DNA of 64,000 bases, from contig CAWETU010000001.1 in the NCBI GenBank assembly GCA_963812135.1, forward strand, positions 224,001 to 288,000, given 5' to 3'. This document shows, in pieces, positions 24,486-38,206 of this stretch (position 1 is its first letter; each line of letters begins with the position of its first letter). Position numbers and translations under genes: made by a program. The DNA comes from Vulcanimicrobiota bacterium (GTDB lineage: Bacteria > Vulcanimicrobiota > Vulcanimicrobiia > Eremiobacterales > Eremiobacteraceae). The notes below the pieces were generated by a model, which was not told where the DNA came from, ran no database searches, and saw only the letters and a list, made by a program, of their open reading frames with translations.

Positions 24486-25085
24486 TCAGAGCGTCCGCCT
24501 GCCCTCGAGCGCGCGCGCCAGCGTCGTCTCGTCGGCGTAATCGAGCTCGCCGCCGATCGGCAATCCATACGCGAGGCGCGTGACCTTCACGCCGGCCGGC
24601 TCGATCAAGCGGTGCAGGTACAAGGCTGTCGATTCGCCTTCCGCGTTCGGATTGGTCGCGATGATGACTTCTTTGACGCCTTCGGGCGCGAGGCGATCGA
24701 GCAATTCCTTGACGTGCAGCTGTCCGACGCCGATGCCTTCCATGGGCGAGATGAGGCCGCCGAGCACGTGGTAGCGTCCGTTGAACGTCATCGCGCGCTC
24801 CACCGCGTACACATCCTTGGCCTCGCCGACCACGCAGATGAGCGACGGATCGCGCCGCGGATCCAAGCAGATCGAGCACTCGTCGCCCTCGGTCAGACTG
24901 AAGCAGCGTTTGCAGAACCGTATCTTGTCTTTGACCGCGACGATCGCGTCGGCCAGCGCCTGCGCGTCTTGCCGGCTCGCCGACAGCAAATAGAAGGCGA
25001 GCCTTGCGGCGGTCTTCGGTCCCACCGTCGGCAGCTTCTCAAGCTCGCCGATGAGCGACGACAGCGGGCCTGCGAGATGGTCCAA
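24486..25085 (-). CDS. recR: Recombination mediator RecR
   Basis: LP.VGPKTA.RLA, C4 zinc finger, YHVLGG.ISP, ATNPNAEGE, LEGR. Confidence 0.96.
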   Translation of the reverse strand: MDHLAGPLSSLIGELEKLPTVGPKTAARLAFYLLSASRQDAQALADAIVAVKDKIRFCKRCFSLTEGDECSICLDPRRDPSLICVVGEAKDVYAVERAMTFNGRYHVLGGLISPMEGIGVGQLHVKELLDRLAPEGVKEVIIATNPNAEGESTALYLHRLIEPAGVKVTRLAYGLPIGGELDYADETTLARALEGRRTL

Positions 25086-25398: not shown

Positions 25399-27093
25399 CT
25401 ACAAGAGCTCCGTTCCAAGGACCGACTCGGCGAGCGCGAAGCCGGAATTTTCGTCGCGAACCGTCGCGGCTTGGCGCGGCGGCGCGCTGCCGAGCTCGAA
25501 CGCGATGCGCGGCCTGATCCCGCTGACATGTTCGATCGCGCCGGCGATCAGGGCGCTCGTGCCGGCGTCGCTCAAGCTCTCCAGGAAATGTTTCTTCGTG
25601 ACGGAGAGCGTCACCGTTTGATCGTTCGCGTCGGTGACCGTCGCGTGCTGCAGATACGCGAACACCGTATTCGAACGTTCGCGCACGGCGGTCATGACGA
25701 GATGCCACATCGCGCGCAGCTTTGTCGGCGTCAGCGATCCGGCCGCGTTGACACCCGGTGATGGCGAGACTTCGGGGACGGGGGCGCTCGCTGGAGACGC
25801 AGCGCTCTTGCCGGTCTTGCGCGCCGCCGGCGCCGCAGCAGCGGGCGTCGGCGCGGGCTTTGCCGGAGCTGGAGCGCCGCCAGATGGCGTGCTGGACGAT
25901 CCCGAGCGCTCCTCGAGCGACCGCAGCCGGTCCGAGAGGCCTTGCAGGGTGAGTTCGTCGGCCGGCACGATGATGCGCGTCAACGCGAGTTCGAGATCGA
26001 TGCGCGGCTGAGTCGACCAACGCTGCGCGACGCAATCGGAAAGCACGCGCAGCGCGGCCATGATCTTGGCGCGCCCGAGCGCGGCGGCACGCGTCGCGAT
26101 CGCCTCCGCCTCGTCCGGCGGCGCTTCCATGTCCAGCACTTCGCGGCTCGTCCGAGCGAGCAGCGCCAACCGGAACCAACGCAGCAGCTCTTTGGAAAGC
26201 CATGCCGCGTCCACGCCCATCGCTCCCGAGTCCGCGACGGCCTGCAGCGCCGCACCCGCATCCGACGCGATGACTGCGTCCACCAAGCGCTCGACGATCT
26301 CGCGATGCGACTCGCCGAACGCGGCGTCGAGCACCTGCGCGTCGATCGTTTTGCCGCCGGCAAATCCGCGCGCCTGTTCGAGCAGCACGAGCGCGTCGCG
26401 CAACGCGCCGTCGGCGAGGTGCGCGATGCGACGCGCCGCCGCGTCGTCCAACGCGATCTTCTCTCGCTTGGCCACCTCTTCGAGGCGTTTCGCGATCACC
26501 GGCGGCGTCATGCGCCGGAACTCATAGCGCTGGCAGCGCGACAGAATGGTGGCGGGCACGCGGTGCAGCTCGGTGGTCGCCAGCACGAACACGACGTATT
26601 CGGGCGGCTCTTCGAGCGTCTTGAGCAACGCGTTGAACGCTTCCGAGGTCAGCATGTGGACCTCGTCGATGATGTAGACCTTCTTGCGGAACTGCGAGGG
26701 GGCGAACTGCACGCGGTCGCGCAGCTCGCGGATCTCGTTGATGCCGCGATTGCTGGCGGCGTCGATCTCGACGACGTCGAACGCGGTGCCGGCGGCGATC
26801 GAGGTGCACGCCTCGCAGATCCCGCACGGGTCCGGCCGCGGTCCGTTGGTCAAGCAATCGAGGCACTTGGCGAGGATGCGCGCAGCCGACGTCTTGCCGG
26901 TGCCGCGCGGCCCGGAGAAGAGGTATGCGTGCGCGACGCGGCTCGATTTGACGGCCGACGTGAGGCCCTGCACGACCGCCGGTTGCCCGACGAGTTCGTC
27001 GAACGCAGCAGGGCGGTGTTTGCGATAGAGCGTCAGCGGTGCAGATGAGGCGGTTTCAGGCACGTTATGCGCTTCGGTCGATTCGCGCCGCAT
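25399..27093 (-). CDS. dnaX: DNA polymerase III subunit gamma/tau (start may be GTG 27063)
   Basis: LYRKHRP, GPRGTGKT, EIDAAS, IIDEVHML, NALLKTLEEPP, SRC. Confidence 0.96.
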   Translation of the reverse strand: MRRESTEAHNVPETASSAPLTLYRKHRPAAFDELVGQPAVVQGLTSAVKSSRVAHAYLFSGPRGTGKTSAARILAKCLDCLTNGPRPDPCGICEACTSIAAGTAFDVVEIDAASNRGINEIRELRDRVQFAPSQFRKKVYIIDEVHMLTSEAFNALLKTLEEPPEYVVFVLATTELHRVPATILSRCQRYEFRRMTPPVIAKRLEEVAKREKIALDDAAARRIAHLADGALRDALVLLEQARGFAGGKTIDAQVLDAAFGESHREIVERLVDAVIASDAGAALQAVADSGAMGVDAAWLSKELLRWFRLALLARTSREVLDMEAPPDEAEAIATRAAALGRAKIMAALRVLSDCVAQRWSTQPRIDLELALTRIIVPADELTLQGLSDRLRSLEERSGSSSTPSGGAPAPAKPAPTPAAAAPAARKTGKSAASPASAPVPEVSPSPGVNAAGSLTPTKLRAMWHLVMTAVRERSNTVFAYLQHATVTDANDQTVTLSVTKKHFLESLSDAGTSALIAGAIEHVSGIRPRIAFELGSAPPRQAATVRDENSGFALAESVLGTELL

Positions 27094-27095
27094 TC

Positions 27096-28655
27096 CTAGA
27101 CGCGGCGCGACGCGATGCGTGCGAGCTCGACGTAGTCGACCTTCGCGTTGTGCCGTTTATCCACAGGGATGTGCGGCAGCAGCGCGATCTCGTCGAGCTG
27201 CGCCCATGCGAGACGCCGTTTCAAAGCATCCCTGTCCAGCTTGACGCCGGCCGCGGGTTCGACGAACAGGACGCGCCGCTCTTTGATGCGTGCGATGGCG
27301 CAGCGGGCGACGCCGGTCGCATCGCTGGCGGCGCATTCGACGGCGAACGGATAGAGCGTGCCGCGGTCGTCGCGGATCGCCCCGGCGCAGCGCCCCAACA
27401 GCCAAAGGCGGCCGTGCGTATCTCGATAGCCGAGATCTCCGGTGCGATGCCATGCGACGCCGTCGACGCGGAACTTGGTCTCTGCGTCGCCGATGCCGCC
27501 GAGATAGCCCGGCAAGACGTGCGGACCGCTCACCACGATCTCGCCGGGCGTGCCGGCGGGCAACCGCTGCGCTTCGAATTCAGCCGCAGCCATCGCCTCG
27601 ATGGGCGTGCCCCAACGGTTCGGGATGATCGAAAGCTCGATCGAGGGCACGGGGACGCCCGCCAGAAGGCCGGCGCCGGCGTGCATCGCCTCACGATCGT
27701 CCGGCAAGACGTCGTCGCGCGCGATGTCGGCGATCGGCTCGGCCTCGGTCGACCCGTACACCGCGGTGATGCGCGCGCGTGGCGCCGCAGCGGCGGCAAG
27801 ATCGAGTTGCTCCGGAAAGACCGGCGCGCCGCCCGCGAACACGCGGCGCACGCCCTTGAGCGAACGCCCGCGCGAGACGCAATACAGCGCGAGACGCTTC
27901 AGCAGCGCCGGCGACGCGACGATGCTGCGCGCGTCGTACCGCTCCATCTGTTCGAACAGCGCCGCCGGGTCGGCGGCGCCGGGCCGGCGCACGTCGACGC
28001 CGGGGATAAGACTGGTGACGCCGGCGGCGAGATTCGCGAGCAGCACGATCGGCATCGTGGCGGTGTCGACCGTGCCGGCATCGAGGCGCAACGCGGCGGA
28101 CAACGCCGTGAGCTGTGCGGCGAGCACGCCGTGACTGCGCGCGGCTGCCTTGGGCGCGCCGGTGCTGCCGCTGGTGAACGTGATGAGCGCCGGGTCATCG
28201 GGAGCCCGCGGCACGAGGGGCGTCCGCGCGCGCTGCGTCCCAAGCCGGATCGTCGCCGGCAGCGCAGACGCGCTGAACGCGCGCGGGATCGCGCGCACCG
28301 CCGGCGACACGAGACGCAACGCGTGCGCGCGCGGGCTTGCGAAGAGCGCGGCGGGTCGCACGACCGCGCAGCAACGCTCGATGAAGGCCCGGCCGTTCGA
28401 TGGATCGATGAACGCCGCCACGAGCCCGAGGCGCAGCATGCCGACGAGCGCGACATACAAGTCGATCCCCATGGGCGAAAAGACGAGCACCGCGTCGCCG
28501 GCGGATAGGCCGCTGCTCGCAAATGTCGCGGCAGCCGCTTCGCCGCGCGCCGCCAACTGCGCGAACGTGATGCGGCGATCGCGGCCGCCTTCGACGATCG
28601 CGAGCGAATCCGCGCGCTCGATGACCTGCTCGTCGAGCAGCTCGACGACGTTCAC
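27096..28655 (-). CDS. ANL-superfamily adenylating enzyme (OleC-like)
   Basis: FTSGSTGAPK, YGSTEAEP, WHRTGDLG, GR, C-terminal PVDKRHNAKV. Confidence 0.85.
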   Translation of the reverse strand: MNVVELLDEQVIERADSLAIVEGGRDRRITFAQLAARGEAAAATFASSGLSAGDAVLVFSPMGIDLYVALVGMLRLGLVAAFIDPSNGRAFIERCCAVVRPAALFASPRAHALRLVSPAVRAIPRAFSASALPATIRLGTQRARTPLVPRAPDDPALITFTSGSTGAPKAAARSHGVLAAQLTALSAALRLDAGTVDTATMPIVLLANLAAGVTSLIPGVDVRRPGAADPAALFEQMERYDARSIVASPALLKRLALYCVSRGRSLKGVRRVFAGGAPVFPEQLDLAAAAAPRARITAVYGSTEAEPIADIARDDVLPDDREAMHAGAGLLAGVPVPSIELSIIPNRWGTPIEAMAAAEFEAQRLPAGTPGEIVVSGPHVLPGYLGGIGDAETKFRVDGVAWHRTGDLGYRDTHGRLWLLGRCAGAIRDDRGTLYPFAVECAASDATGVARCAIARIKERRVLFVEPAAGVKLDRDALKRRLAWAQLDEIALLPHIPVDKRHNAKVDYVELARIASRRV

Positions 28656-29581
28656 GCGCCCGCGAGCTCCTTCGCGAAGAGCGTATAGCCGCGCATGGTG
28701 GCGCCGAAACGCTCGCTCAGATCGACCGATGCGTTCTCGTCGTACATCAAGGCGTGGATGCAGCGCGTGTAGCCGCGCGCGTGCGCCGCGCTGCGACAGC
28801 GCTCGAGCAGCACGCCTCCAAGGCCCGTGAAGCGCGCATGCGGATCGCGCGCCAGCGTCTTGACGATCATCGTATCGGCCGGCAGCCCGCGTTTGGGACG
28901 CAATAGATCCGGCAATCCGAACACGAAACCGGCGACGCGGGCGTCGTGCTCTGCGATGAAGACGATCGCGGGATCGATCATCTCGCGCAGCGGCGCGTAC
29001 ATCGCCACGAACTCCTCCTCGCCGATCGGACTGTACAGGAAGTTGCTCGCGAAGCTCGCCAGCGACACGCGGTGGATCGCGCGCATCTCGGTCTCAAAGC
29101 GCTGCAGATCGAGCGGCCGGATGCGGACGCCGCTCGATGCGAGCCGCTGTTCGATCTCGGGCGCTTTGGGATCGCGGATCTCCAAGCCGCGGTCGAGCGC
29201 CGACGTGTAGTGGGCCAGCGGCTCGAAGCCGGCCGCGCGGAAATACGCGGGCCACTCATCGGGATTGTGCGGTTCGAGGAAAAACGGCGGGTCGGCGCCG
29301 CGCTCGGTGACGAAGCGATACGAATGCCAGGTGCTGCCGTCCATCGGCCCCACCGCCAGCGTGCAGCCTTGCGCTGCGAGCTGCTCGGTCGCGCGAGCGA
29401 GCACGATTGCAGCAGCGCGCTCGCCGTCGGCTTCGAAATCGCCGATCCGTCCGACGCGGTGCGCGGCATACGCCGGCGGGTCGTTCCACCACACGCCGCA
29501 GCGCGCGTGCTGCCCGCCCTCGATCTCCACACGCACCTGCGCGTCGGCCCGCTGAGATGGTTGTGCGGGCTGTCCGCTCAT
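28652..29581 (-). CDS. GNAT N-acyltransferase (YghO/bacterial ceramide synthase-like)
   Basis: GPM..ST, PPFFLEPHNP..W...F..AGF, IRPLD..RF..E, NF.YSPI.EEE, GFVFGLPD. ATG 29581 overlaps the upstream TGA. Confidence 0.65.
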   Translation of the reverse strand: MSGQPAQPSQRADAQVRVEIEGGQHARCGVWWNDPPAYAAHRVGRIGDFEADGERAAAIVLARATEQLAAQGCTLAVGPMDGSTWHSYRFVTERGADPPFFLEPHNPDEWPAYFRAAGFEPLAHYTSALDRGLEIRDPKAPEIEQRLASSGVRIRPLDLQRFETEMRAIHRVSLASFASNFLYSPIGEEEFVAMYAPLREMIDPAIVFIAEHDARVAGFVFGLPDLLRPKRGLPADTMIVKTLARDPHARFTGLGGVLLERCRSAAHARGYTRCIHALMYDENASVDLSERFGATMRGYTLFAKELAGA

Positions 29582-30972
29582 GGAAGTGCAGGCGCTCCAG
29601 CCGCGGATCGAAACGCCCATAGGACTGCGAGGCCCGCCGCAGACACGAGCAGCGCCACAATGCCTTGCCGCACCCAGCGCGTTTCCATCTGATAATCGTT
29701 GACGCTGGGCTGCACCCAATAGAAAACCTGCACCCCCGCGGCCACGAACGGCAGGGCGAGCAACCCTGCGTCGACCCACGCACGCGTTTCGTGCACGTAT
29801 GCGAAGAACGGGATGATCGGCGCAAAGATCGCGAGCCAGCTCACCAACGACGCGGCGATAAGCGCCCGGACGCGCCCGAGCGTGGGTCGCTCGTGCATCG
29901 TGTGCCTCGCCTCGAAGATCGCCATGTGGATGGCGAAGCCCAACATATACGCGAAGAAGAACGCCGGTTGTCGCACGCCAAGCGGAAGGTGTGGATCGCC
30001 GTACGTCGCCGCGAGCACCACCCAGATCACCCCGGCGAGACTCACGCTTTCGACCGTGTGGACATTGTGGCGGCGATATCCCTCGTCTTTTGCGGAGACG
30101 CGGACGCCGTGGCGAGCATCGTTGATCACGATCGCCGCCGGCGCGAGCAGCCACATCCATCCGCCGAGCGCCCAGGCGACGAACGCGAACAACACGCATG
30201 CCATCAGTGCGTCGTCGTCGAGCGTCGATTGACGCCGTAGCGCATAGGAGAATGCGACAAACGCTAGCACGACGGCCAGTCGTATGACGAGCTCGGGCCA
30301 GCTCAAGTGGATGAAGTTCTGGAGCAGCGCGAAGCCGGCCAGCGGAATGGTGAGGTTGTCCAGGCCGCGCCACGCGATCGCCTCGACCAACATGACCAAG
30401 AAGCCGAGGATGACGGCGATGAGCAGCGCTTCCAGCCGGCCGGTCGTCGAGAACAGCAACAACGGGATATGGACGCACAGGAACGCGACGCCGAAGCACG
30501 CGAGCGAACCTTCGACGCTCTTGATGCCGTCGGGTGTGGCGAAGCGGACAGAACCGTAGCGCACGCCGACCAATGCCGCGACGGCGTCGGCGAACGTCAG
30601 CGTGAGGATCGGGATGCTGAACAGCAGTTTGTCGCCGTGCGATAGCACGAACAGCGTCGCAACGCCGATCGTATAGAAGAACTCGCCGAACGACTCGCGG
30701 TTCACCGCGTGCAGCACGCTGCCGAACTCGCGCTTCATCGCGGGCAACACCCGGATCGAGAGCAACGCCAGCGCTGCGAGCGAGGACAGGACGATGACCG
30801 GCCACGTGGCCGAGAAGATCCATGGCAGCGTGAGGCTGACCAGACCCATCCCTAGGTGCAACAGCTTGCGCGCGAGCTCCGGACCGAGCCTCGAGCGCGC
30901 CGCGCGCAGGCCGAGGAAGAGCGTGCCGAACGCGCCGAGCACGAGCGCGATGCCGAGCAGCGGCGGTATCAT
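29578..30972 (-). CDS. Polytopic CTP-dependent kinase/cytidylyltransferase-fold protein (phytol/dolichol kinase-like)
   Basis: RKLLH, AD.VAALVG..YG, KSVEGS, GLDNLTIP; many TM helices. Confidence 0.75.
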   Translation of the reverse strand: MIPPLLGIALVLGAFGTLFLGLRAARSRLGPELARKLLHLGMGLVSLTLPWIFSATWPVIVLSSLAALALLSIRVLPAMKREFGSVLHAVNRESFGEFFYTIGVATLFVLSHGDKLLFSIPILTLTFADAVAALVGVRYGSVRFATPDGIKSVEGSLACFGVAFLCVHIPLLLFSTTGRLEALLIAVILGFLVMLVEAIAWRGLDNLTIPLAGFALLQNFIHLSWPELVIRLAVVLAFVAFSYALRRQSTLDDDALMACVLFAFVAWALGGWMWLLAPAAIVINDARHGVRVSAKDEGYRRHNVHTVESVSLAGVIWVVLAATYGDPHLPLGVRQPAFFFAYMLGFAIHMAIFEARHTMHERPTLGRVRALIAASLVSWLAIFAPIIPFFAYVHETRAWVDAGLLALPFVAAGVQVFYWVQPSVNDYQMETRWVRQGIVALLVSAAGLAVLWAFRSAAGAPALP

Positions 30973-32069
30973 GCGCGCACCTGCTCGACCACCAGCGCGT
31001 CATAAAAAAACGCTTTGTCTTGGTCGTGCAGGCGCGCCGCCTCGTCGATGAGCGGGAGCAGACGATTCGCCATCGCTTCGGGGCGGCTGCGCGGCACCAT
31101 CATGTTCCAGTAGACGAGGCGAGCGCCAGGCGTGCACGCGCCGGCCACCTGCTCGAGCAACGCGGCGTAGTTCTCGGCGGACATGTATTCGAAGATGTCG
31201 CTCAAGTTCGCGCCGTCGAATGCCGGCACGCTCGCTTGTTGCAGGTACGTCTCCAGCGGCAGGCGGTGCCACTCCAACCGATCGAGGTTGGCGCGGATGC
31301 GCTCGAAGTTCTCGGCGCGCAGCGCGAAGGGAAGCGCGTCGCCGTGGCGGCCGGTAAGGATCCAATGCAGGTAGGGGTTGGCGGCCGGCTCGAGATCGAC
31401 GAGCGCGTGGCGGCTGCGCGCGAGCAGGCGGTCGCCGATCGCGCCGTCGACGTAGTCGAAGAATCGCGGGTCGCGCCCGAAACGCCCCATCACCGTGCGC
31501 GAGAAGAACAATCTGAACAGCATGCGCCAACGCCACGAATCCCACGTGCGATCGTAGAACTCCGCGCGGCTCGGCGCATCCTTCGGCTCGAGCAGTTCGT
31601 CGACCGTGCGGCGCGAGTGCAGCATGGGCAAGACGCGCGAGCGGAACAGGGCGAAGTAATCTTCGAACTTTCCGGCGGCGCCGATGCCGTGCGCGATCGC
31701 GTCAACACGATCGTCCCAGAACGAGCTGGCCTCGCCGGAGAGTTGCGCGCGACATCGTTGATACAGGACGGGCCGGCGTTCGCTTGGGGTCGAGCCGATG
31801 AGCTCGAGCAGCTCTGCATGCGAGAGCGTGCGGTACGCAGCCACGCGCAGCTCCAAGCATGCGAGCTGCGCCTGCGAAAGATCGAGCGCCACCACTTTTT
31901 GCGGACCGCAGGCGAGCAGCGCGAGGGCGTTGTCGCCAGCGGATGCGATCGAGAGATACCTCTTGCCGGGCTGCACCTGCAGCGCTTGCAGCAGGACGTC
32001 GGCGTCTTCCCAGCATTGGGCGTAGCGGATAATCGTGAAATCTGATTTCTGCGCGACCTCACTGCGCAT
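30969..32069 (-). CDS. BtaA/DUF3419 SAM-dependent 3-amino-3-carboxypropyl transferase-like
   Basis: IRYAQCWED, IASAGDNAL, DLS..Q, GKFE.YF, NPYL, LSDIFEYM. Confidence 0.8.
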   Translation of the reverse strand: MRSEVAQKSDFTIIRYAQCWEDADVLLQALQVQPGKRYLSIASAGDNALALLACGPQKVVALDLSQAQLACLELRVAAYRTLSHAELLELIGSTPSERRPVLYQRCRAQLSGEASSFWDDRVDAIAHGIGAAGKFEDYFALFRSRVLPMLHSRRTVDELLEPKDAPSRAEFYDRTWDSWRWRMLFRLFFSRTVMGRFGRDPRFFDYVDGAIGDRLLARSRHALVDLEPAANPYLHWILTGRHGDALPFALRAENFERIRANLDRLEWHRLPLETYLQQASVPAFDGANLSDIFEYMSAENYAALLEQVAGACTPGARLVYWNMMVPRSRPEAMANRLLPLIDEAARLHDQDKAFFYDALVVEQVRA

Positions 32070-34764
32070 GTGCCAGCTCCGCCGCCAGCTGGATGCGGGT
32101 CAGCACGCCGGTGGCGCCGTCGAACTCGACGTGGTCGCCGTCTTTGAGCCACGACGTCAGACCTTCGATCGAAACGATCGCCGGAATGCCCATCTCGCGC
32201 GCGACGATCGCCGCGTGCGAGAGCAGGCTGCCGCGCTCCACCAAAATGCCGCTCGCGGCGGGGAAGAGCATCACCCAGCTCGGGTCGGTGCGTTCGGCGA
32301 CGAGCACGTCGCCCTTGTGCAGCGTCGCCGCATGCGGATCGCGCACGACGCGAACGGTCCCGCGGACTACGCCGGGGCAACACCCGGTCCCGGTGCGCGT
32401 CTCGCCTGTCGCACGCGGCGCTGCGCCGTTCGGAATCGGTGGGTCTTCGACGTCGATCGAGACATCGGCGCCATCGACCGGGCCGTGCGTCACGAAGCGA
32501 TCGGGCGGTGGGGGCATCTGGCGGTAGCGTTCGAACTCCGCCTTGCGTGCGGCGACGCGAGCTTTGAGGTCAACGGCGGCATCAGGTCTCTCGACCTCTC
32601 CGAGCGCCTCGTCGAGCTCGAGGTAGAAGATGTCGCGCGGTTCGTCCAGCAACCCGCGCTCGGCAAAGCACCGGCCCAACGCTATGAAGATCGCGCGGAT
32701 GCGGCCGAAGAGCCGCGTGCGCCCGAATCGCAGGTTCTCGCGATCGACGATGCGGCCGCGTGCGTTCTTCACGATCCAGGCGAACATCGCGCGGCGCAGC
32801 GGTGCGCGTGCGAGCGCCGTGGCCACGCGCTGTTCCGCCGCCGCACGCAGCGACGGGTGTAGCCCGGTCGCGTCAGCGCTCGCCGGTAACGCCTGCGCTG
32901 CGAGCCGTCCAACCGCTCGGAGCAACATCGAGGGATCGTCGCGCAAGGTCGGGCTCTCGAGTTTGAGCTCGCCGTCGCAGCGATCGCCGAATTCGCGCAT
33001 GTAGTTCTCGAGGAGCTCGTTCACGCGACTGTCGCGGCGCAACGCTGCCAACGCGTCGGATGTCGGCGCGTTGGCCAATGCCTCGACAAGCGCCGGCTCG
33101 GCTGCAGCCGCAACGGCGAGCGCGCGGATGGCCGCGGCAGGGCGGGTGCTGATCATGCCGCCTTGCCCGCAGAGCAGATCGTTTTGCAGCGTGCCGGCGC
33201 TGTCGCCGCACCATGTGTTGCACGCGCGCCGCAAGAGGCCGTAGAAGATCATCGCAAAGAAATCATTGATGAGCGGCGCATCCCAATCGTTGACCAAGCG
33301 TTGCTCGAGGCGGCGATATTCGCGCACGATTTCGTCAGGGCCGAGGCCCGCTAGTCGCTGCGGGTCGGACGCGAGCGCGTCGTCGAGCACGTGATAGAAG
33401 CGCCGCATGCGCGCGCGCAGCGTCAGGTGGTGCCACGCCAGCGCCGCGCTCGTGCGCGCGACGGCGAGCGCGTCCGCGAGCCGGCTGCCCGTCTGGGCGC
33501 CGCGCACGTCGGCGAGCACGGACTCAGGCAGCGCCTCCTTGACGCCCATCATCTGTTCCATGAAGCGGCGGTTGATGCGGAATCCGGGCAGCAGCGCGAG
33601 CAAGCGATACCAATTCAGCAGATTGTAGTAGATGCGGCCGCGGATAAGGCCGAGCATGTTGCGAAACGTCTCGTCGTGCGCCGCTGCGACGCGATCGGGG
33701 ATGGCCAAGAGCCGGAAGAACTGGCGGTACGCGCTGTCGTAGGCGTGCTGCGCGAACGTGAAGGTGAGCGGCGTCGTCATGCCGCCGTAGCTCTCCGCGA
33801 TGTTGCTGTTATCCCAGATCGTGATATCGCCGGCGTGTGCTGTCGCGGCCAGCGACGTGATCGGCCGCGCTTGCAACAGATACAGCCGTCCGCTCCGATA
33901 CGCCCACTCGATGTCCTGGGGCGCGCCGAAATGCTGCTCGGCCTTGCGAGCGAGCTGCGCGACCTCGCGCACTGCGGCGTCGTCGAGCGCGGGCTGCTTG
34001 GCATGATCCGTCGAGATCTCGACCGCCTCGACGCCTTCGACGCTCGTCGGACTGCGCCGATGGGCGGCGCGCTTGTCGGCGATGATGCGCTCGACGATGC
34101 GGTCCCCGCGATCGACTTTGTACGTGTCGGCGTCCGCTTCGCCCGAGACAAGCGCGGTGCCCAGCCCGAACACGGCGCTGATCACGGCGATGTCGCGTGC
34201 CCCGCTGACCGGATCGGCGGAAAACGCGACGCCCGACGCGTCTGCGTCGATCATGCGTTGCACCAGCACGACGGGCGGCGCGGGCGCAGGCGCGAGGCCG
34301 CGATTGCCTCGGTACGCGGCCACTCGCTGCGTGAACGCAGATGCCCAGACCCGCGCGACGCGGTCGGCGACCTGATCGGCAGGGACGAAGAGATAGCTTT
34401 CGAGCTGCCCGGCGAAGGATTGTTGCGCGGCGTCTTCGTCGGCAGCGGAGGAGCGCACGGCGAAGACGTCGCCGGAACTCGCCGCGAGCGCGCGCACGGC
34501 GTCGTCAATCGCAGCCACGACGTCCTCGAGCGGCCGCACCGTGCGCAGCGTCGTCAGGTCATCGTCGGTCGGCGAAGCGTGCGAGAGCGCGGCCTGCTGT
34601 TCCGCCGTGAGGCTTGCGCGCCACGCGTCCGTCGAGATCGCGAACCATTGCGGCACCGGCATCCGTGCGGCGGTGAGCGATGCGAGCGCGCTGCCCTTTC
34701 CTCCGAAGCGGGCGATCGCATCGGCTGCGGCGACGTCGTCGCTAGAGCGGACGATGTAGCTCAT
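32059..34764 (-). CDS. PEP-synthase/rifampicin-phosphotransferase-like dikinase (ATP-grasp, substrate domain, His-swivel)
   Basis: GGKG, AVRSSA.DED..SFAGQ, PQDIEWA, LQARPIT; C-terminal TDPSW and GSLLSHAAIVARE. ATG 34764 overlaps the upstream TGA. Confidence 0.88.
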   Translation of the reverse strand: MSYIVRSSDDVAAADAIARFGGKGSALASLTAARMPVPQWFAISTDAWRASLTAEQQAALSHASPTDDDLTTLRTVRPLEDVVAAIDDAVRALAASSGDVFAVRSSAADEDAAQQSFAGQLESYLFVPADQVADRVARVWASAFTQRVAAYRGNRGLAPAPAPPVVLVQRMIDADASGVAFSADPVSGARDIAVISAVFGLGTALVSGEADADTYKVDRGDRIVERIIADKRAAHRRSPTSVEGVEAVEISTDHAKQPALDDAAVREVAQLARKAEQHFGAPQDIEWAYRSGRLYLLQARPITSLAATAHAGDITIWDNSNIAESYGGMTTPLTFTFAQHAYDSAYRQFFRLLAIPDRVAAAHDETFRNMLGLIRGRIYYNLLNWYRLLALLPGFRINRRFMEQMMGVKEALPESVLADVRGAQTGSRLADALAVARTSAALAWHHLTLRARMRRFYHVLDDALASDPQRLAGLGPDEIVREYRRLEQRLVNDWDAPLINDFFAMIFYGLLRRACNTWCGDSAGTLQNDLLCGQGGMISTRPAAAIRALAVAAAAEPALVEALANAPTSDALAALRRDSRVNELLENYMREFGDRCDGELKLESPTLRDDPSMLLRAVGRLAAQALPASADATGLHPSLRAAAEQRVATALARAPLRRAMFAWIVKNARGRIVDRENLRFGRTRLFGRIRAIFIALGRCFAERGLLDEPRDIFYLELDEALGEVERPDAAVDLKARVAARKAEFERYRQMPPPPDRFVTHGPVDGADVSIDVEDPPIPNGAAPRATGETRTGTGCCPGVVRGTVRVVRDPHAATLHKGDVLVAERTDPSWVMLFPAASGILVERGSLLSHAAIVAREMGIPAIVSIEGLTSWLKDGDHVEFDGATGVLTRIQLAAELAHAQ

Positions 34765-35687
34765 CGCTGCACGAGCGCGCTGCCCGCGCGCACGGCCATC
34801 GGAATGACGCCCAGACCGAGGTACATGCCGAGCGTCCACACGCCTGACATGAGCTCGATCGCCTTTGACGCCGCATGCGTCGGCCGCCGCACGAACGTCA
34901 GCGCCGACCAGGCGGCCACAGCCGCCAGCGCGCCGAGCAGCAGCGCACCGGGCAGCGTGAAATTGATCTGCGCCGCTGCTCCGACGCCGAGCGCTGCGGT
35001 CGCGAGCACAGCGCCGAGCCACACGAGCGGAGCGGCGCGGCGGCCCCACAACACCGTGTAGGTCTCCACGCCGCGCTCTTCATCTTCGCTGGCGCGGATC
35101 TTACGGCCGACTTCGATCACGATGCCGTTCACGAAACTCACCGCCAGGAACCAGAAGAGACCGGCCGGTGGTGGTACGCGCGCCACGAGCCAGTCGAAGG
35201 CGGTGACATAGAAGTCGATCAGCGGCATGATGAACATATGCGAAAGCAGGTAGCTGACCGGATGCACCTTCAGCCATCCGCTGACGAAGAACTCTTTCGT
35301 CATCAGCCCGAAATAAGCCCACACGCCGGCGAGAATGAGACACAGCGCCGGATCGATCAGCAGCGCGATGGCCAGCTGGATGAGCGCTCCCGCGACGCCG
35401 ACCACGCCGAGCTCCCGCAGACTGACCAGGCCGCGCTGCACGGGCCGATACGGGCGGTACGCGAGATCGTCGTCGTAGTCTTTGAACTCGTCAGCGATAC
35501 GCAGCTGCGCGAAGAAGATGAACGACGATGCGAAGCCGCTCAGCAACAGCGGCCACGGCGGGAAATGGCTGCTGCCCCGCAGCAGCGCGGAGAAGCACAT
35601 CGCCGAGGCGCTGAACGCCGCGATCAGCGGACCGTGCGCGAGCACCGGAAAGCGCTCGCGCTGGTAGACGATGAAGCGTCCGATCAC
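34761..35687 (-). CDS. UbiA-superfamily membrane prenyltransferase-like protein
   Basis: RIADEFKD..DD...RP.RPVQRG Asp-rich motif, multiple TMs, RKIR...E..GVETY. Confidence 0.75.
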   Translation of the reverse strand: MIGRFIVYQRERFPVLAHGPLIAAFSASAMCFSALLRGSSHFPPWPLLLSGFASSFIFFAQLRIADEFKDYDDDLAYRPYRPVQRGLVSLRELGVVGVAGALIQLAIALLIDPALCLILAGVWAYFGLMTKEFFVSGWLKVHPVSYLLSHMFIMPLIDFYVTAFDWLVARVPPPAGLFWFLAVSFVNGIVIEVGRKIRASEDEERGVETYTVLWGRRAAPLVWLGAVLATAALGVGAAAQINFTLPGALLLGALAAVAAWSALTFVRRPTHAASKAIELMSGVWTLGMYLGLGVIPMAVRAGSALVQR

Positions 35688-36880
35688 GCGTGTCGGTCAG
35701 GTTGCGGCTCCGGCGTGCCGCGTGCGAGCCGTTCGTGCGCGCTCGCGAACTCAGCGGCGCAGAGCGCGCCCGAGATCGAGAGCTCGCCGGCGAGGCACAC
35801 GCCGGCGCAGATCTCGGCGAACGCGTTGGCCGGCTGTTCAGCCGGCAGTCCGAGTATGTCGAGACACGCGCGCTGCGATGGCAGCCCGGTCCCGCCGCCG
35901 ACCGCGCCGACGATCACGTTCGGCAGCGTGACGGAGGCGTAGAGGTCACCGTTCTCCGTCAACGTGAAGCGCGAGATGCCGATCGCCGATTCGGCGACGC
36001 ATGCCGCATCTTGGCCGCAGGCGATGTACAGCGCGGCGAGCCCGTTCGCGTAATGCCCCTCGATGCCGATCGCGCCGCTCATCACGGCGCCGACCGCGCC
36101 CATCTGCCAGTATTCGGTCAAATGCCGCGGCGTCGCATGCAGCCATTCCTCGCTCAGCCGTGAAGGCAGCGTCACTTCGGCGATCGCGCGGCGGCCGCGC
36201 AAGCCGAGCATCGACATGACCGTCGCTTTCTTGTCGCCGGAGAAATTGGCTTCGAGGAAGTGATGCTGCGGTTTGACCGGTGAGCGCTGCGCGATGAAGG
36301 TGCACATGGCCTGCGTCGCGATGGTCGCCATGTTCTGGCCGGCCGCCTCGCCGGTGGCGAACGAGAACGTCACGTAGACGCGATTACCTTCCACTGTGGT
36401 GCGCAACGACTCGAGCCGGCCGTGACGAGTGGTCGCGCCAGCGACGCCACGCAGCGCTTCGAGCTGGTCGCGGATCCATGACGCGAACGAGTTCGCTTCG
36501 GCCAGATCGACGAACGCGAAACCCGGTGCGCGGGTCACAGACGACGCATCCACGAGCGCGGTGCAGCCGCCTACCGCGGTGATGAGCTGGGCACCGCGGC
36601 TATAGGAAGCGACGAGCGCAGCTTCGGTCGTGGCCAGCGGCAGGTAGAAATCGCCGCGCGCATGGGCGCCGTTGACGCGCAGCGGCCCGGCAACGCCGAC
36701 CGGCACCTTCACCGTGCCGATGAAGTTTTCGATGTTGCGCGCGAAGGCTGTCAGTCGCGCGAGGGTGTGCGCATCAGCAAGCTCTGCGCGCACGGCATCC
36801 GACGCGCCGAGCTGATCCCAGCGCCGCGCCACCGACTCCGATGTCAGCTGCGCCGATCGATCGATCTTCGGCTTGTCCAC
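35684..36880 (-). CDS. Class I HMG-CoA reductase-like protein
   Basis: ENFIG, PLATTEAALVAS, EAAGQNM, DKK, GQD, GAVGGGT, AHERL. Confidence 0.9.
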   Translation of the reverse strand: MDKPKIDRSAQLTSESVARRWDQLGASDAVRAELADAHTLARLTAFARNIENFIGTVKVPVGVAGPLRVNGAHARGDFYLPLATTEAALVASYSRGAQLITAVGGCTALVDASSVTRAPGFAFVDLAEANSFASWIRDQLEALRGVAGATTRHGRLESLRTTVEGNRVYVTFSFATGEAAGQNMATIATQAMCTFIAQRSPVKPQHHFLEANFSGDKKATVMSMLGLRGRRAIAEVTLPSRLSEEWLHATPRHLTEYWQMGAVGAVMSGAIGIEGHYANGLAALYIACGQDAACVAESAIGISRFTLTENGDLYASVTLPNVIVGAVGGGTGLPSQRACLDILGLPAEQPANAFAEICAGVCLAGELSISGALCAAEFASAHERLARGTPEPQPDRHA

Positions 36881-37024
36881 GGGCCCTCATTTGTACCAGG
36901 CGATGCCCAGTTAGTGACCGGAACGTGCTCTATCCTGGTATTTGCATCGCCGGCGCGCGTACCGTCCCGTGCGCGGGGCACGCGTCCCCGGCTTGAAAGG
37001 CGTCAAGCAGGCGCGAGGGAGCCG

Positions 37025-37652
37025 CTAGGGCCAGCGGAGTTCGAGCGGATCGGTCGCCGGCGTCTTGTCCGCGCCGGTGAGCGCGAAGCCCTCGATCCCG
37101 CCAGGCGATTGTTCGAAATAGCGCGCCGCGTCGCCGCGACCATCGGCGACGAGCTCGCCCACTTTTGCGGTCGTTCCGCCGCGAGTCTCCCACAACGCAT
37201 AGCGCGCATGCGGCGAAAGACCGTCCGCGACGACATAGATCCAATGGCCGTCGGCGGCCTGTATGACCTTGGCGTCGCCGCCCTTGCCGGTCAACGGATG
37301 GTGGACGAAGTGGCTGTGCACGAGCGCATCGACCGGCACGCTGACGGCCTCGTTTCGCAGCTGCACGTTCCACAAGATCAAGCCCAGACACGCCGCGATC
37401 GCGCCGGCGGCGATCCACGTGGACACCGGCCGTCGCGGCCGCAGCACGGTGACGCCGATATCGGGCGACATGCGCTTCACCGGACGTCGGCGCCTCAAGC
37501 GACGCGAGCGCGCCGACGCCTGCCATCGCATCGGCGAGCAACACGGCGCAGGTCGGGCACGTATCCGCGTGGTCGAGCAGCGCGCGCGCGGTCGCGTCGT
37601 CCAAACTGCCGAGCGCGAAGGCCTCGATCTCGTCGTACGGATGTTGCGTCAT
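37025..37652 (-). pseudogene. RskA-like zinc-finger anti-sigma factor, split by one extra base
   Basis: Frame A: H..TC.TC ZAS motif up to LEAP. Frame B: RPVKR..., TM helix, extracytoplasmic domain with Y.LW. Removing one base near 37487 gives a 208-aa ORF. Confidence 0.8.
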
Positions 37653-38206
37653 GGCGATTGCGACCCCATCGCCCGCGCAAGTCTCGACAATCCGAGTTGT
37701 GCGCGCCGCTTCACCGTGCCCAAGGGCGCGCCGGTCCGCTGCGCGATCTGGGCGAGCGTCATCGAGCCGAAATAGGCATACGTGATCACCGTCTTCTGTT
37801 CCGCCGGAAGCTCTTCGAGCGCCGCGCGCACGCCGTGCGCCGCTTCGTGCGCGGCTACTTCATCGAAAGGATCAGCGGCCACGCCGCCCTCGAAGCTGCG
37901 CTCTTCGCGCGCGTTGCGGCGCGATTCAGAACGCACGATACCGAGCGCCGCGTTGCGGGTGACGGTGAACAGCCATGGCCCGATCCCTCCGGTTCGGACG
38001 ACCAGTCCGTGTCGGTGTTGCCACAGGGCCAAGAACGCTTCTTGCACGGCGTCCTCGGCGCGAGCGTCGTCGTGCAGCACGCGGTAGGCCACACCTTTGC
38101 AGCGCGCCGCGTAGCCTTTATAGGCGTCCTCGAGCGCGGTGGCATCGTCTGCCGCTAGGCGCCGGACGAGTTCTGCGTCCACTCCCTCAGCGATTTCCCT
38201 TGACAC
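37649..38206 (-). CDS. ECF sigma-70 factor (SigK-like)
   Basis: AEDAVQEAFL..W, WLFTV.RN, LP..Q..VI..AYF, EIA-like HTH, PLGTVKRR. Confidence 0.9.
   Translation of the reverse strand: MSREIAEGVDAELVRRLAADDATALEDAYKGYAARCKGVAYRVLHDDARAEDAVQEAFLALWQHRHGLVVRTGGIGPWLFTVTRNAALGIVRSESRRNAREERSFEGGVAADPFDEVAAHEAAHGVRAALEELPAEQKTVITYAYFGSMTLAQIAQRTGAPLGTVKRRAQLGLSRLARAMGSQSP

Follow-up and report, generated by a model that had tools for sequence, protein, structure and literature searches.

On balance, we favour the explanation that a self-contained, horizontally spread cassette of seven genes makes an undescribed amphiphilic lipid derived from a fatty alcohol, via a proposed route in which the enzymes act in the order G7, G1, G5, G3, G2, G4 and G6. 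The product would most likely be a membrane lipid that carries an amino-acid-like head group. The cassette lies within a window of 64,000 nucleotides, that is the whole stretch of DNA that was analysed. No description of the cassette or of its family combination was found in the literature searched, in line with the initial annotation, which had named no characterised pathway of this composition.

Organization of the cassette

Seven open reading frames, G1–G7, occupy 27096–36880 on the minus strand and span 9.8 kb. The families to which the initial annotation had assigned them are upheld.

35684–36880, minus strand: G1, 398 aa, core domain only; predicted HMGR-fold reductase of the FcrA (fatty acyl-CoA reductase) type
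34761–35687, minus strand: G2, 308 aa; UbiA-superfamily membrane transferase
32059–34764, minus strand: G3, 901 aa; swivel-histidine dikinase-type phosphotransferase
30969–32069, minus strand: G4, 366 aa; DUF3419/BtaA-like SAM-dependent 3-amino-3-carboxypropyl transferase
29578–30972, minus strand: G5, 464 aa; polytopic membrane protein, N-half CdsA/polyprenol-kinase-like
28652–29581, minus strand: G6, 309 aa; tandem-repeat GNAT acyl/acetyl-transferase
27096–28655, minus strand: G7, 519 aa; ANL-superfamily adenylating enzyme/acyl-CoA ligase, OleC-related PRK09274 group
36881–36929, minus strand: 49-nt spacer between the anti-sigma stop codon and the GTG start of G1, the upstream edge of the cassette
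37649–38206, minus strand: ECF sigma factor, outside the cassette; it overlaps by ATGA with a zf-HC2 anti-sigma gene at 36930–37652
25399–27093, minus strand: dnaX, outside the cassette; its ATG lies 2 nt past the G7 stop codon (TAG)
24486–25085: recR, following dnaX

The six junctions from G1 to G7 all overlap (GTGA, ATGA, ATGCGCAGTGA of 11 nt, ATGA, ATGA and GTGA), as the initial annotation had read them, and judged from this arrangement G1–G7 are one co-ordinated unit. In four genomes of the same genus, the ECF sigma/anti-sigma pair adjoins dnaX without the cassette, and comparison with these genomes identifies the cassette as a clean 9.8-kb insertion. Its placement directly ahead of dnaX, likewise pointed out before, is due to insertion, and a functional tie to dnaX is not supported.

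Conservation and distribution

To follow the cassette across genomes, 80 loci were fetched via relatives of the membrane protein G5, and a gene was counted as present when its best tblastn HSP reached at least 100 bits. All seven genes were present on one strand in 40 of these 80 loci. Thirty-seven loci have at least 9 kb upstream and at least 4 kb downstream; of these long-flank loci, 31 carry seven genes, four carry six and two carry three. The seven-gene loci share the same gene order and cover ten phyla according to record titles; by this comparison of sequences, the linkage exceeds chance. Several 'partial' loci are split cassettes, the absent genes of which sit elsewhere in the same genome. 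For example, a cyanobacterial genome splits G4-G5-G6, at one locus, from G1-G2-G3, on a different contig, and a Planctomycetota genome has G5-G6-G7 at one locus and G1 plus G4 at another, spaced as in G1-G2-G3-G4. G1 is absent nearby in four of the 37 long-flank loci, and in two of these four genomes a search with this G1 query did not find a relative. No eighth conserved gene family was found around the cassettes, the next commonest plus-strand family occurring in 11 loci and the next ones examined in seven and five. The distribution is patchy (G5 is present in 3/40 relatives), and the G4 tree contains clades that mix phyla. Some variant loci carry added P450, GH3 or PAP2-P450 genes.

G1 as a predicted FcrA-type reductase

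G1 matches PF00368 with an E-value of 9e-108 and retains the catalytic residues E86, K217, D291 and H382. Its score against TIGR00533 is 308 bits, under the cut-off of 441.8. At three HMG-binding positions, E210, M260 and F378 replace S684, K735 and L862 of human HMGR, and the cassette orthologues have Glu at the first of these positions in 44/44 and Phe at the last in 45/45. As a control, S/K/L was recovered in all 23 eukaryotic HMGRs, all 13 GHMP-kinase fusions and the single HMG-CoA-synthase fusion, and E(D)/non-K/F in DUF3419, AMP-binding and APH fusions; the signature thus splits non-mevalonate fusions from true HMGRs.

According to the main text of PMC11948995, FcrA is an HMGR homologue that turns acyl-CoA of C14 and longer, not HMG-CoA, into the alcohol, with a role in wax-ester synthesis and possibly in ether-lipid synthesis. 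Like this class-I-HMGR-derived enzyme of Ca. Promineifilum breve and Natronomonas pharaonis, G1 has the HMGR fold with the catalytic Glu/Lys/Asp/His, a Glu for Ser684, a residue other than Lys where the HMG-binding Lys would stand, and a bulky aromatic residue for Leu862; unlike FcrA, it is devoid of an N-terminal Lad or ACP domain. The wax-ester setting of FcrA differs as well, as a WS/DGAT gene was not found in the host genome in a search run without a positive control, and the terms 'kinase', 'UbiA' and 'synten' appear nowhere in the main text of the FcrA paper (PMC11948995). Judged by its residues, G1 is of the FcrA type and not an HMG-CoA reductase, a signature that says nothing on substrate chain length. 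The earlier proposal that an acid is activated and reduced to an alcohol thereby receives support from outside (PMC11948995).

Families and motifs of the remaining enzymes

Catalytic motifs are intact, as read from the alignments, in G1–G4 and G7. G7 matches PF00501 (E 1e-48). Of the NCBIfam models, NF006754 fits it best with 366 bits (cut-off 478), and it reaches 196–220 bits against OleC models whose cut-offs are 850–900. Its TSGSTGxPK motif (T161, S162, G163, T165, P168, K169) is invariant in 50/50 orthologues, and D499, R501, H502 and K505 of DxRHNAK are present in 49/49 ungapped orthologues. G4 matches PF11899 (E 2e-66) and no NCBIfam model; S43, G45 and N47 of its SAM-binding SAGDN motif are kept in 68/68 orthologues.

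G3 consists of an ATP-grasp PPDK_N domain (PF01326, residues 19–308), a middle region of ~500 aa and a mobile His domain (PF00391, residues 816–886), with no further domain matched. Its score against NF004881 is 795 bits, under the cut-off of 883. With Rph, PigC, RedH and PEP synthase, G3 has both the ATP-grasp (PPDK_N) and the mobile His domain in common, His850 being kept in 52/52 ungapped orthologues. It has no PEP/pyruvate barrel and falls far under every equivalog cut-off (Rph 334/999, RedH 362/1350, PigC 314/1300, PEP synthase 267/740).

G6 matches PF00583 at residues 199–293 (22.2 bits, cut-off 20.7). Foldseek comparison of its predicted model (pLDDT 92.9) retrieved the tandem GNATs 7q3a (E 5e-12, TMq 0.60–0.64), 5kf1 and MshD (2c27, 1ozp), as compared to a TMq of only about 0.40 for the aminoacyl-tRNA-dependent FemX and MprF. 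The predicted acyltransferase may carry acetyl rather than a long chain as its cargo.

G2 matches PF01040 (45 bits, cut-off 34.2), and D66, E67, K69, D70, D74, R195, K196, R198, E203, E204 and G206 are invariant in 47/47 orthologues. Among solved structures, its family profile significantly matches only two, chlorophyll a synthase (E 2.8e-4) followed by DGGGP synthase (E 2.2e-3). G5 has no Pfam or NCBIfam match, and its relatives are labelled 'phytol kinase' or 'phosphatidate cytidylyltransferase' in the sources. Its predicted model (pLDDT 87) best matches CDP-DAG synthase 4q2e_A over 160 aligned residues (model residues 43–222), with an rmsd of 5.6 and a Z of 8.0, a middling score for a helical protein. 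In hhalign, the N-half reaches a probability of 85% against CdsA (E 6e-6), the 42 matched columns lying at the D...G..G...K(S/T)xEG motif, which is seen solely in profile comparisons. For the C-half (about 228–464), the comparison with DUF92 gives a probability of 51% (E 1.6e-4) over 69 columns. Profile and model thus indicate that the N-half resembles CdsA/polyprenol-kinase enzymes; it could also be a cytidylyltransferase, converting a lipid phosphate to a CDP-lipid, instead of a kinase.

Proposed pathway and comparison with known systems

In the proposed route, G7 would adenylate a long-chain fatty acid to yield an acyl-CoA (step 1), which G1 would reduce with NADPH to the fatty alcohol (step 2). 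The CdsA/polyprenol-kinase-like half of G5 would phosphorylate the alcohol, probably with CTP (step 3), and a second phosphoryl transfer by either G3 or the C-half of G5 would generate an alkyl diphosphate (step 4). G2, whose nearest relatives (chlorophyll synthase and DGGGP synthase) are O-transferring enzymes, would link the alkyl group to an acceptor oxygen (step 5). G4 would supply a SAM-derived 3-amino-3-carboxypropyl (homoserine-type) group (step 6), the amine of which would be acylated or acetylated by G6 (step 7). We infer the substrates, the order of steps 3–7, the acceptor and the cellular place of the product.

Steps 3–5 would parallel phytol salvage in plants and cyanobacteria, where the phytol kinase VTE5 and the phytyl-phosphate kinase VTE6 (DUF92) are followed by chlorophyll synthase or homogentisate phytyltransferase of the UbiA family, that is alcohol, phosphate, diphosphate and UbiA-family transfer. 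The N-half of G5 and the nearest solved relative of G2 fit this likeness; however, the cassette alcohol is expected to be saturated or plain fatty and made in situ, the C-half of G5 has no detectable DUF92 membership, and the swivel-His dikinase is extra. To our knowledge, all donors of characterised UbiA enzymes are allylic diphosphates or PRPP, and a saturated alkyl diphosphate would have no precedent among them. In archaeal ether-lipid synthesis, the UbiA-family enzyme DGGGP synthase precedes CarS, of the CdsA superfamily, which likewise places a UbiA O-alkyl transferase beside a CdsA-superfamily membrane enzyme, DGGGP synthase being the second-best solved match of G2; in contrast, the cassette is without GGGPS, CDP-alcohol transferase and isoprenoid supply genes, and its head group would come from SAM. 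With BtaA/BtaB betaine-lipid (DGTS) synthesis it shares the DUF3419 family and SAGDN motif of G4, but a tandem GNAT takes the place of a BtaB-type N-methyltransferase, so that acylation of the amine would be expected instead of methylation.

Alternative explanations

Fusions among long relatives bear on the order of the steps. DUF3419, in 36 long relatives, is fused to a dikinase in 25, HMGR in three, GNAT in one (P0200), MMPL/RND transporters in two and MFS in one. HMGR is joined to an APH/EcKL kinase in 16, and UbiA+HMGR, HMGR+AMP-binding and HMGR+DUF3419+APH (P0223) fusions also occur. The G3-G4 and G1-G4 fusions suit equally well orders in which the SAM-derived group would be attached to the alcohol itself or to a phosphate that G3 had put in place. 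In this alternative, with the cassette and the lipid character unchanged, the aminocarboxypropyl group would be carried by the fatty alcohol without a linker (an O-alkyl-homoserine ether) or by the phosphate made by G3 or G5 (an alkyl-phospho-homoserine, in an order resembling the kinase-then-methyltransferase capping enzyme WbdD), and N-acylation would complete a glycerol-free two-chain lipid, with the UbiA enzyme using an ordinary isoprenoid diphosphate or PRPP. The G1+DUF3419 (P0122, P0123, P0222), triple, dikinase+DUF3419 and G4-G6 type fusions are consistent with this alternative, which also dispenses with the saturated donor. Nevertheless, we regard it as rather unlikely: it gives the two phosphoryl-transfer enzymes and the UbiA enzyme no shared rationale, BtaA enzymes are known to O-alkylate a hydroxyl and not a phosphate, and fusions indicate common pathways, not neighbouring steps.

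It is improbable, though conceivable, that the cassette makes, instead of a bulk membrane lipid, low amounts of a small exported amphiphile, such as a signal, a surfactant or an antibiotic-like N-acyl-homoserine derivative. The patchy, horizontally mixed distribution (the rarity of G5 among relatives, the cross-phylum G4 clades and the clean insertion) and the extra P450, GH3 or PAP2-P450 genes at some variant loci would agree with such a compound, and the transporter fusions to DUF3419 suggest export. However, envelope lipids are among the cargo of MMPL-type transporters, and three of the seven proteins handle lipids or are integral membrane enzymes. Moreover, the gene set is rigid from phylum to phylum and includes few tailoring genes, which sets it apart from typical natural-product clusters.

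The host genome (98.4% complete) encodes Dxr (385 bits, above cut-off), and mevalonate kinase, diphosphomevalonate decarboxylase and HMG-CoA synthase gave no match over cut-off in it; by gene content, it is without a mevalonate pathway. This speaks against the 'isoprenoid-type' character given in the initial annotation. That G1 is a genuine HMG-CoA reductase, as its family name implies, in a mevalonate-derived isoprenoid pathway is therefore hardly credible despite the PF00368 match, the four catalytic residues and the adjoining UbiA and polyprenol-kinase-like proteins, given also its E, M and F in place of the S/K/L of every true HMGR in the control set, its TIGR00533 score and the failure of characterised FcrA to reduce HMG-CoA (main text of PMC11948995).

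Taken together, the initial interpretation is partly supported; what we infer is the product and how the later steps follow one another. If the proposed route is true, the cassette would represent a fatty-alcohol lipid pathway whose product has not yet been described.

Organization of the cassette

The initial annotation had described seven minus-strand open reading frames at 27096-36880, and these are present with the family matches that it claimed. Reading of the sequence also bore out the proposed junctions from G1 to G7, namely GTGA, ATGA, an 11-nt overlap (ATGCGCAGTGA), ATGA, ATGA and GTGA.

Genes of the cassette and of its upstream flank
35684-36880, minus strand: G1, HMG-CoA reductase (HMGR)-fold reductase (HMG-CoA_red PF00368, E 9e-108)
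34761-35687, minus strand: G2, UbiA-type transferase (UbiA PF01040, 45 bits vs cut-off 34.2)
32059-34764, minus strand: G3, swivelling-His dikinase (PPDK_N and mobile PEP-utilizers His domain, without the PEP/pyruvate barrel)
30969-32069, minus strand: G4, BtaA-like protein (DUF3419 PF11899, E 2e-66)
29578-30972, minus strand: G5, 464-aa membrane protein (no Pfam or NCBIfam match)
28652-29581, minus strand: G6, tandem acetyltransferase-type protein (GNAT)
27096-28655, minus strand: G7, adenylating enzyme/acyl-CoA ligase (AMP-binding)
36930-37652, minus strand: zf-HC2 anti-sigma gene, upstream neighbour of G1
37649-38206, minus strand: ECF sigma gene upstream of the cassette, overlapping the anti-sigma gene by ATGA
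38461-40113, plus strand: recQ-like helicase gene, in the flank beyond the ECF sigma gene

The anti-sigma stop codon lies 49 nt upstream of the G1 start. Between 24000 and 38600, neither promoter-like sites (1 vs 1.2 expected) nor terminator-like sites (10 vs 8.1 expected) gave a signal, and tRNA genes and Rfam families (gathering score) were absent from the whole 64-kb window. No RNA runs matched the 9.8-kb cassette; the matches obtained were 15 DNA-type soil or metagenome runs, one of them with a 0.61 share of words.

G1 carries the residue signature of fatty acyl-CoA reductases

Residues of G1 were mapped by HMMER alignment to human HMGR (1dq8) and to 6hr7. The paper on FcrA, a fatty acyl-CoA reductase derived from HMGR, prints the HMG-binding lysine as 'Lys795', which we take to be Lys735 from the alignment and the human numbering. 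G1 keeps the catalytic tetrad of HMGR as E86, K217, D291 and H382 (Glu559, Lys691, Asp767 and His866, respectively) and has E210, M260 and F378 at the positions of human Ser684, Lys735 and Leu862, so that the HMG-binding trio is not matched. According to the FcrA paper, FcrA likewise retains Glu559, Lys691, Asp767 and His866, while Glu stands in place of Ser684, small residues occupy the position of an HMG-binding Lys and a bulky one takes that of Leu862 (PMC11948995). G1 agrees with this description in having Glu at Ser684, a residue other than Lys at the HMG-binding position, a bulky residue at Leu862 and an intact tetrad (PMC11948995).

The signature recurs among the G1 orthologues from cassettes (46 ORFs, some truncated). 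The Ser684 position is Glu in 44/44 ungapped sequences and the Leu862 position is Phe in 45/45, while the Lys735 position, with the G1 of the window counted in, is Met in 31, Val in 10 and another residue in 6, one of which is Lys. As a control, Ser/Lys/Leu was found in 37/37 HMGRs of true context (23/23 eukaryotic enzymes, 13/13 GHMP-kinase fusions and the 1/1 HMG-CoA-synthase fusion). Fusions of HMGR to DUF3419, AMP-binding or APH/EcKL domains have Glu (or Asp), non-Lys and Phe; the single UbiA+HMGR fusion is E/M/R at these positions, and the two HMGR+ketosynthase fusions deviate as well.

In addition, G1 does not reach the TIGR00533 equivalog (308.5 bits vs cut-off 441.8). It is the one HMGR-like gene in the window's genome (98.4% complete), which encodes Dxr (385 bits, over the cut-off of 315.7). 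This genome revealed no mevalonate kinase over cut-off (best match 93.6 bits vs 163) and neither diphosphomevalonate decarboxylase nor the HMG-CoA synthase C-domain. Judged by its residue signature, G1 is probably an FcrA-type enzyme and not an enzyme of the mevalonate pathway. WS/DGAT (PF03007) gave no match in the same genome, nor in any of the 14 control genomes, so that this search had no positive control. The strings 'kinase', 'UbiA' and 'synten' have zero occurrences in the main text of the FcrA paper (PMC11948995).

Families and motifs of the remaining cassette proteins

G2 combines the two hallmarks of the UbiA superfamily, that is a Pfam match over cut-off and two acidic motifs, D66-E67-x-K69-D70-xxx-D74 and E203-E204-x-G206, which are invariant in 47/47 orthologues. 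Among solved proteins, a profile of 25 orthologues retrieved only chlorophyll a synthase (E 2.8e-4) and DGGGP synthase (E 2.2e-3), with no match to other solved UbiA-family structures at E 10 or better, and the single G2 sequence found nothing among PDB sequences at E 1 or better. Both enzymes transfer to an oxygen atom: chlorophyll synthase forms an ester with a carboxylate, and DGGGPS an ether with a hydroxyl. G3 gave no domain matches other than PPDK_N and the mobile His domain; the His850 motif is conserved in 52-53 orthologues, and the protein stays below the equivalog cut-offs of Rph, PigC, RedH and PEP synthase. G4 shows the mark of the BtaA-type fold, DUF3419 with the SAM-binding SAGDN motif, which is conserved in 68 orthologues. 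BtaA (DGHS synthase) itself modifies diacylglycerol and has the N-methyltransferase BtaB as its partner; no methyltransferase was found in the cassette or among its conserved neighbours.

The G6 model (pLDDT 92.9) predicts two GNAT folds in one chain, as in MshD. Foldseek aligned this model with 7q3a (E 5e-12), followed by 5kf1, 2c27 and 1ozp (TMq 0.54-0.64); the fold resembles MAB_4324, clostridial glucosamine N-acetyltransferase and mycothiol synthase MshD, and the aminoacyl-tRNA-dependent enzymes FemX and MprF scored ~0.40. For G7, the best NCBIfam model was NF006754 (366 bits, under the 478 cut-off) and the OleC equivalog was not reached (220.5 and 195.8 bits vs cut-offs of 900 and 850); P-loop and DxRHNAK motifs are conserved in 49-50 orthologues.

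The membrane protein G5 has 173 relatives by word-indexed search, distributed over many phyla and in some cases named 'phytol kinase' or 'phosphatidate cytidylyltransferase' in their source; the named organisms include Gemmatirosa kalamazoonensis and Alkalilimnicola ehrlichii. PF01148 did not match the G5 of the window, and no NCBIfam family matched its 18-member set at a meaningful E value. The G5 model (pLDDT 87.3) had no Foldseek match in the PDB at E 0.001 or better, and the G5 profile retrieved chance rows only from PDB sequences. A fold-wide aligner superposed model residues 43-222 on the CDP-diacylglycerol synthase 4q2e_A (Z 8.0, rmsd 5.6, 160 residues aligned), the single match at Z ≥ 8, with a score that is middling for a helical protein. 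Comparison by hhalign of the N-terminal half (115 sequences) with 13 CdsA sequences from relatives gave a probability of 85% and an E value of 6e-6 over only 42 columns, which correspond to a shared D...G..G...K(S/T)xEG motif.

The C-terminal half was compared with DUF92, to which the plant phytyl-phosphate kinase VTE6 belongs. Pfam returned E 0.023 or weaker for 5 of the 18 members, hhalign a probability of 3% with a shallow and of 51% with a deep alignment (69 columns), and the Atlas score was 0.84; PF01940 did not match in the cassette genomes G042-G045. These signals are weak and partial, so that a VTE6/DUF92 kinase is kept as a lead only and the C-terminal half is left unassigned. A tally of DUF92 in relatives included two genomes flagged as unpublished (G010, G016), on which none of the present claims depends and whose locus was excluded from the alignment A2. 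A 596-aa protein encoded on a 2.77-Mb contig (P0006) matches G5 at 91% identity across 64% of the G5 sequence and carries DUF3419; G4 and G5 may be read as one protein in a near relative, by a true fusion or by a frameshift at the ATGA overlap.

The cassette is conserved across phyla

One genome per species (185,579 species) was scanned with the 18-member G5 alignment. At least 307 stretches encoding a G5 relative were confirmed, of which the best 80 loci were kept, and a gene was scored as present when the window's protein gave a best tblastn HSP of at least 100 bits. All seven genes, always on one strand, were detected in 40 of these best 80 of at least 307 loci, in the order of the window in 24 and with G6-G7 ahead of G1 in 16. 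The initial annotation had treated the seven genes as one unit; indeed, complete cassettes occur by tblastn in ten phyla among the best 80 loci, namely Vulcanimicrobiota, Planctomycetota, Armatimonadota, Pseudomonadota, Acidobacteriota, Verrucomicrobiota, Rhodothermota, Gemmatimonadota, Deinococcota and Thermodesulfobacteriota (labels from submitters' record titles). Among the carriers are Gammaproteobacteria, Eremiobacterota-type bacteria and others. All-against-all ORF clustering in the same 80 loci yielded no eighth conserved family: the most frequent plus-strand cluster beyond the cassette genes was present in 11 loci, two examined clusters in 7 and 5, and many ORF clusters are antisense shadows.

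At least 9 kb upstream and at least 4 kb downstream of G5 are available for 37 of the best 80 loci. Seven genes are found in 31 of them, six in four loci that all lack G1 (L016, L043, L049, L065) and three in two (L019, L055). Two of the four genomes without G1 at the locus have a 41-43% identical HMGR-like gene elsewhere, and this query found none in the other two, whose completeness is not stated. No substitute reductase lies beside the loci without G1, the neighbours being Omp85, EamA, peptidase S66, AAA, P450 and DLH proteins. A stand-alone G4-G5-G6 trio was rejected, since the genomes of partial loci hold further cassette genes elsewhere. In the cyanobacterial genome of L019, G1-G2-G3 are encoded on a different contig (60%, 52% and 48% identity). 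The L055 locus comprises G5-G6-G7, and its Planctomycetota genome has G1 and G4 together on a single further contig, with the spacing of a G1-G2-G3-G4 arrangement. A 61%-identical G1 and a 61%-identical G4 are located elsewhere in the genomes of L009 and L033, respectively. Thus, the cassette genes co-occur even when unlinked. Searches of the genomes of L083, L038 and L077, for which completeness is not stated, did not find G1, nor G4 in two of them.

Some loci have a distinct gene content. In two Planctomycetota loci, G5-G6-G7 are preceded by a ~720-aa protein without Pfam match and a glucuronyl-esterase-like protein and followed by an 882-aa PAP2-cytochrome P450 fusion (L055:14190-16835 and L058:11947-14592); in L058, an MFS transporter is also encoded downstream. 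In a Chloroflexota locus (L038:3916-11275), the G5 homologue stands behind an alpha/beta hydrolase, an enolase-superfamily protein, a GH3-type amido synthetase and a P450. Neither G1 nor G4 was found in this genome with the window's queries, and the membrane enzyme may serve another pathway here.

Probable acquisition at the dnaX locus

Of 40 related genomes, 3 encode a G5 relative (42-50% identity), and one of these 3 is among the six genomes of the same genus. In four same-genus genomes (G002, G003, G005, G006), recQ, sigma, anti-sigma and dnaX follow in the order of the window with the seven genes absent between them. In the comparison with G005, nucleotide homology breaks off at window position 37170 and starts again at 27101, which lies 3 nt beyond the stop codon of G7, and in G005 the end of the anti-sigma gene and dnaX are 41 nt apart. 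This uninterrupted spacer, together with the limits of homology, indicates that the cassette is a 9.8-kb insertion into the spacer or was precisely lost from the other genomes.

A quick maximum-likelihood analysis of 66 G4 rows (LG+G4, with SH-aLRT as the only support measure and taxon labels of the submitters) gave a tree that groups the window with one Vulcanimicrobiota and one Melainabacteria row (99) and contains cross-phylum clades, e.g. four Rhodothermota with three Gemmatimonadota rows (100). Phylum labels require 26 changes on this tree vs a minimum of 14. The nearest named relatives of the window's cassette are Eremiobacterota/Vulcanimicrobiota bacteria. In a further same-genus genome, G004 (L002), at least G3 to G7 (4.3 kb) are present on another contig; its G5 is only 50% identical to that of the window, which suggests a separate acquisition.

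With the cassette inserted, the essential gene dnaX, the ATG of which is 2 nt beyond the G7 stop codon, stands directly behind a foreign gene, and its transcription may rely on read-through or start from a promoter within G7.

Fusion proteins and kinase variants

Domain lists of long relatives were taken from precomputed Pfam hits, and gene calling across overlapping genes could have created some of the predicted fusions as artefacts. The 70 long relatives of G1 comprise fusions (HMGR+DUF3419, 2; UbiA+HMGR, 1; HMGR+AMP-binding, 4; HMGR+ketosynthase, 2; HMGR+APH/EcKL kinase, 16; HMGR+GHMP kinase, 13; HMGR+HMG-CoA synthase, 1), 23 eukaryotic sterol-sensing HMGRs and 8 others. Among the 36 long relatives of G4, dikinase+DUF3419 predominates with 25 proteins, followed by HMGR+DUF3419 with 3, one of which also has an APH kinase; MMPL/RND+DUF3419 accounts for 2, DUF3419+GNAT, DUF3419+MFS and PEMT+DUF3419 for 1 each, and DUF3419 is the sole Pfam domain in 3.

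In thirteen proteins of ~810 aa (P0148-P0164), an HMGR domain with Ser/Lys/Leu is joined to a GHMP kinase domain; these proteins probably combine HMG-CoA reductase with mevalonate kinase. A metagenome scan with the HMGR+APH fusion P0138 returned 14 loci, with the whole fusion in one and the kinase half only, on short contigs, in the remainder. Two of these short contigs (L116 and L120, 25-32% identity) encode an AMP-ligase, DUF3419, an APH-type kinase and then UbiA or a dikinase; here, a soluble kinase may take the place of the membrane protein G5, although these loci are too few to demonstrate such a replacement.

Proposed pathway and its alternatives

The seven genes form a genuine biosynthetic unit, both conserved and mobile, that unites known kinds of enzymes in an undescribed combination. 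Its nearest known counterparts are FcrA, phytol salvage plus chlorophyll synthase, BtaA, the Rph/PigC family and the archaeal DGGGPS-CarS pair; the combination of the cassette occurs in none of them. That no characterized pathway has it, as the initial annotation stated, agrees with the part of the literature covered by our search, in which the cluster is not described.

The first two steps would convert an acid to its acyl-CoA and further to the alcohol, as suggested by the FcrA signature, by the lack of a mevalonate pathway and by the fusions of HMGR to AMP-binding domains. This alcohol, or something close to it, would then be phosphorylated, as indicated by the CdsA/polyprenol-kinase-like features of G5 and the 16 HMGR+APH/EcKL kinase fusions; G5 itself might be a cytidylyltransferase instead of a kinase. 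Two different phosphoryl-transfer enzymes stand beside a UbiA transferase in one cassette, and to our knowledge every known member of the UbiA family requires a diphosphate donor, which together suggests a sequence from alcohol to phosphate to diphosphate to O-transfer. The same logic of alcohol, phosphate, diphosphate and transfer operates in phytol salvage. G4 would then install a SAM-derived, homoserine-type head, which G6 would acylate. The MMPL/RND and MFS fusions to DUF3419 point to a lipid moved across or out of the membrane. On balance, we favour this general scheme of fatty alcohol, (di)phosphate, UbiA O-transfer and N-acylated SAM-derived homoserine-type head.

A product of the same lipid character could arise by different chemistry: the frequent G3+G4 and G1+G4 fusions fit an aminocarboxypropyl group placed directly on the alcohol or on the phosphate, and we know of no precedent for a saturated alkyl diphosphate as donor. 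With the two phosphoryl-transfer enzymes next to UbiA favouring the diphosphate route, we regard this alternative as unlikely. That the product is a low-abundance exported amphiphile appears improbable to us. A true mevalonate role can be dismissed as extremely improbable, as G1 has E/M/F and not S/K/L and the genome has Dxr and no mevalonate pathway over cut-off.

The favoured scheme can be extended, tentatively and with more doubt than confidence, to a new bacterial lipid class made by an unprecedented route. Here, a fatty alcohol would be converted to an alkyl (di)phosphate as in phytol salvage, UbiA would carry out O-transfer with the first non-allylic fatty alkyl donor, and an N-acylated SAM-derived homoserine-type head would complete a glycerol-free or ether-linked amino-acid lipid, gene-transferred through more than 10 phyla of soil, saline and marine bacteria.

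Owing to its compactness (9.8 kb) and the absence of a conserved accessory gene, the cassette is directly testable by heterologous expression. If the proposal is true, a lipid class and its biosynthetic logic, in which phosphorylation activates a fatty alcohol for a UbiA transferase and SAM provides an amino-acid head, would still be undescribed. It would also explain what a large part of those bacterial 'class I HMG-CoA reductases' that lack an accompanying mevalonate pathway do, extend the roles of FcrA beyond wax esters and could account for unassigned amino- or ether-lipids in environmental lipidomics.
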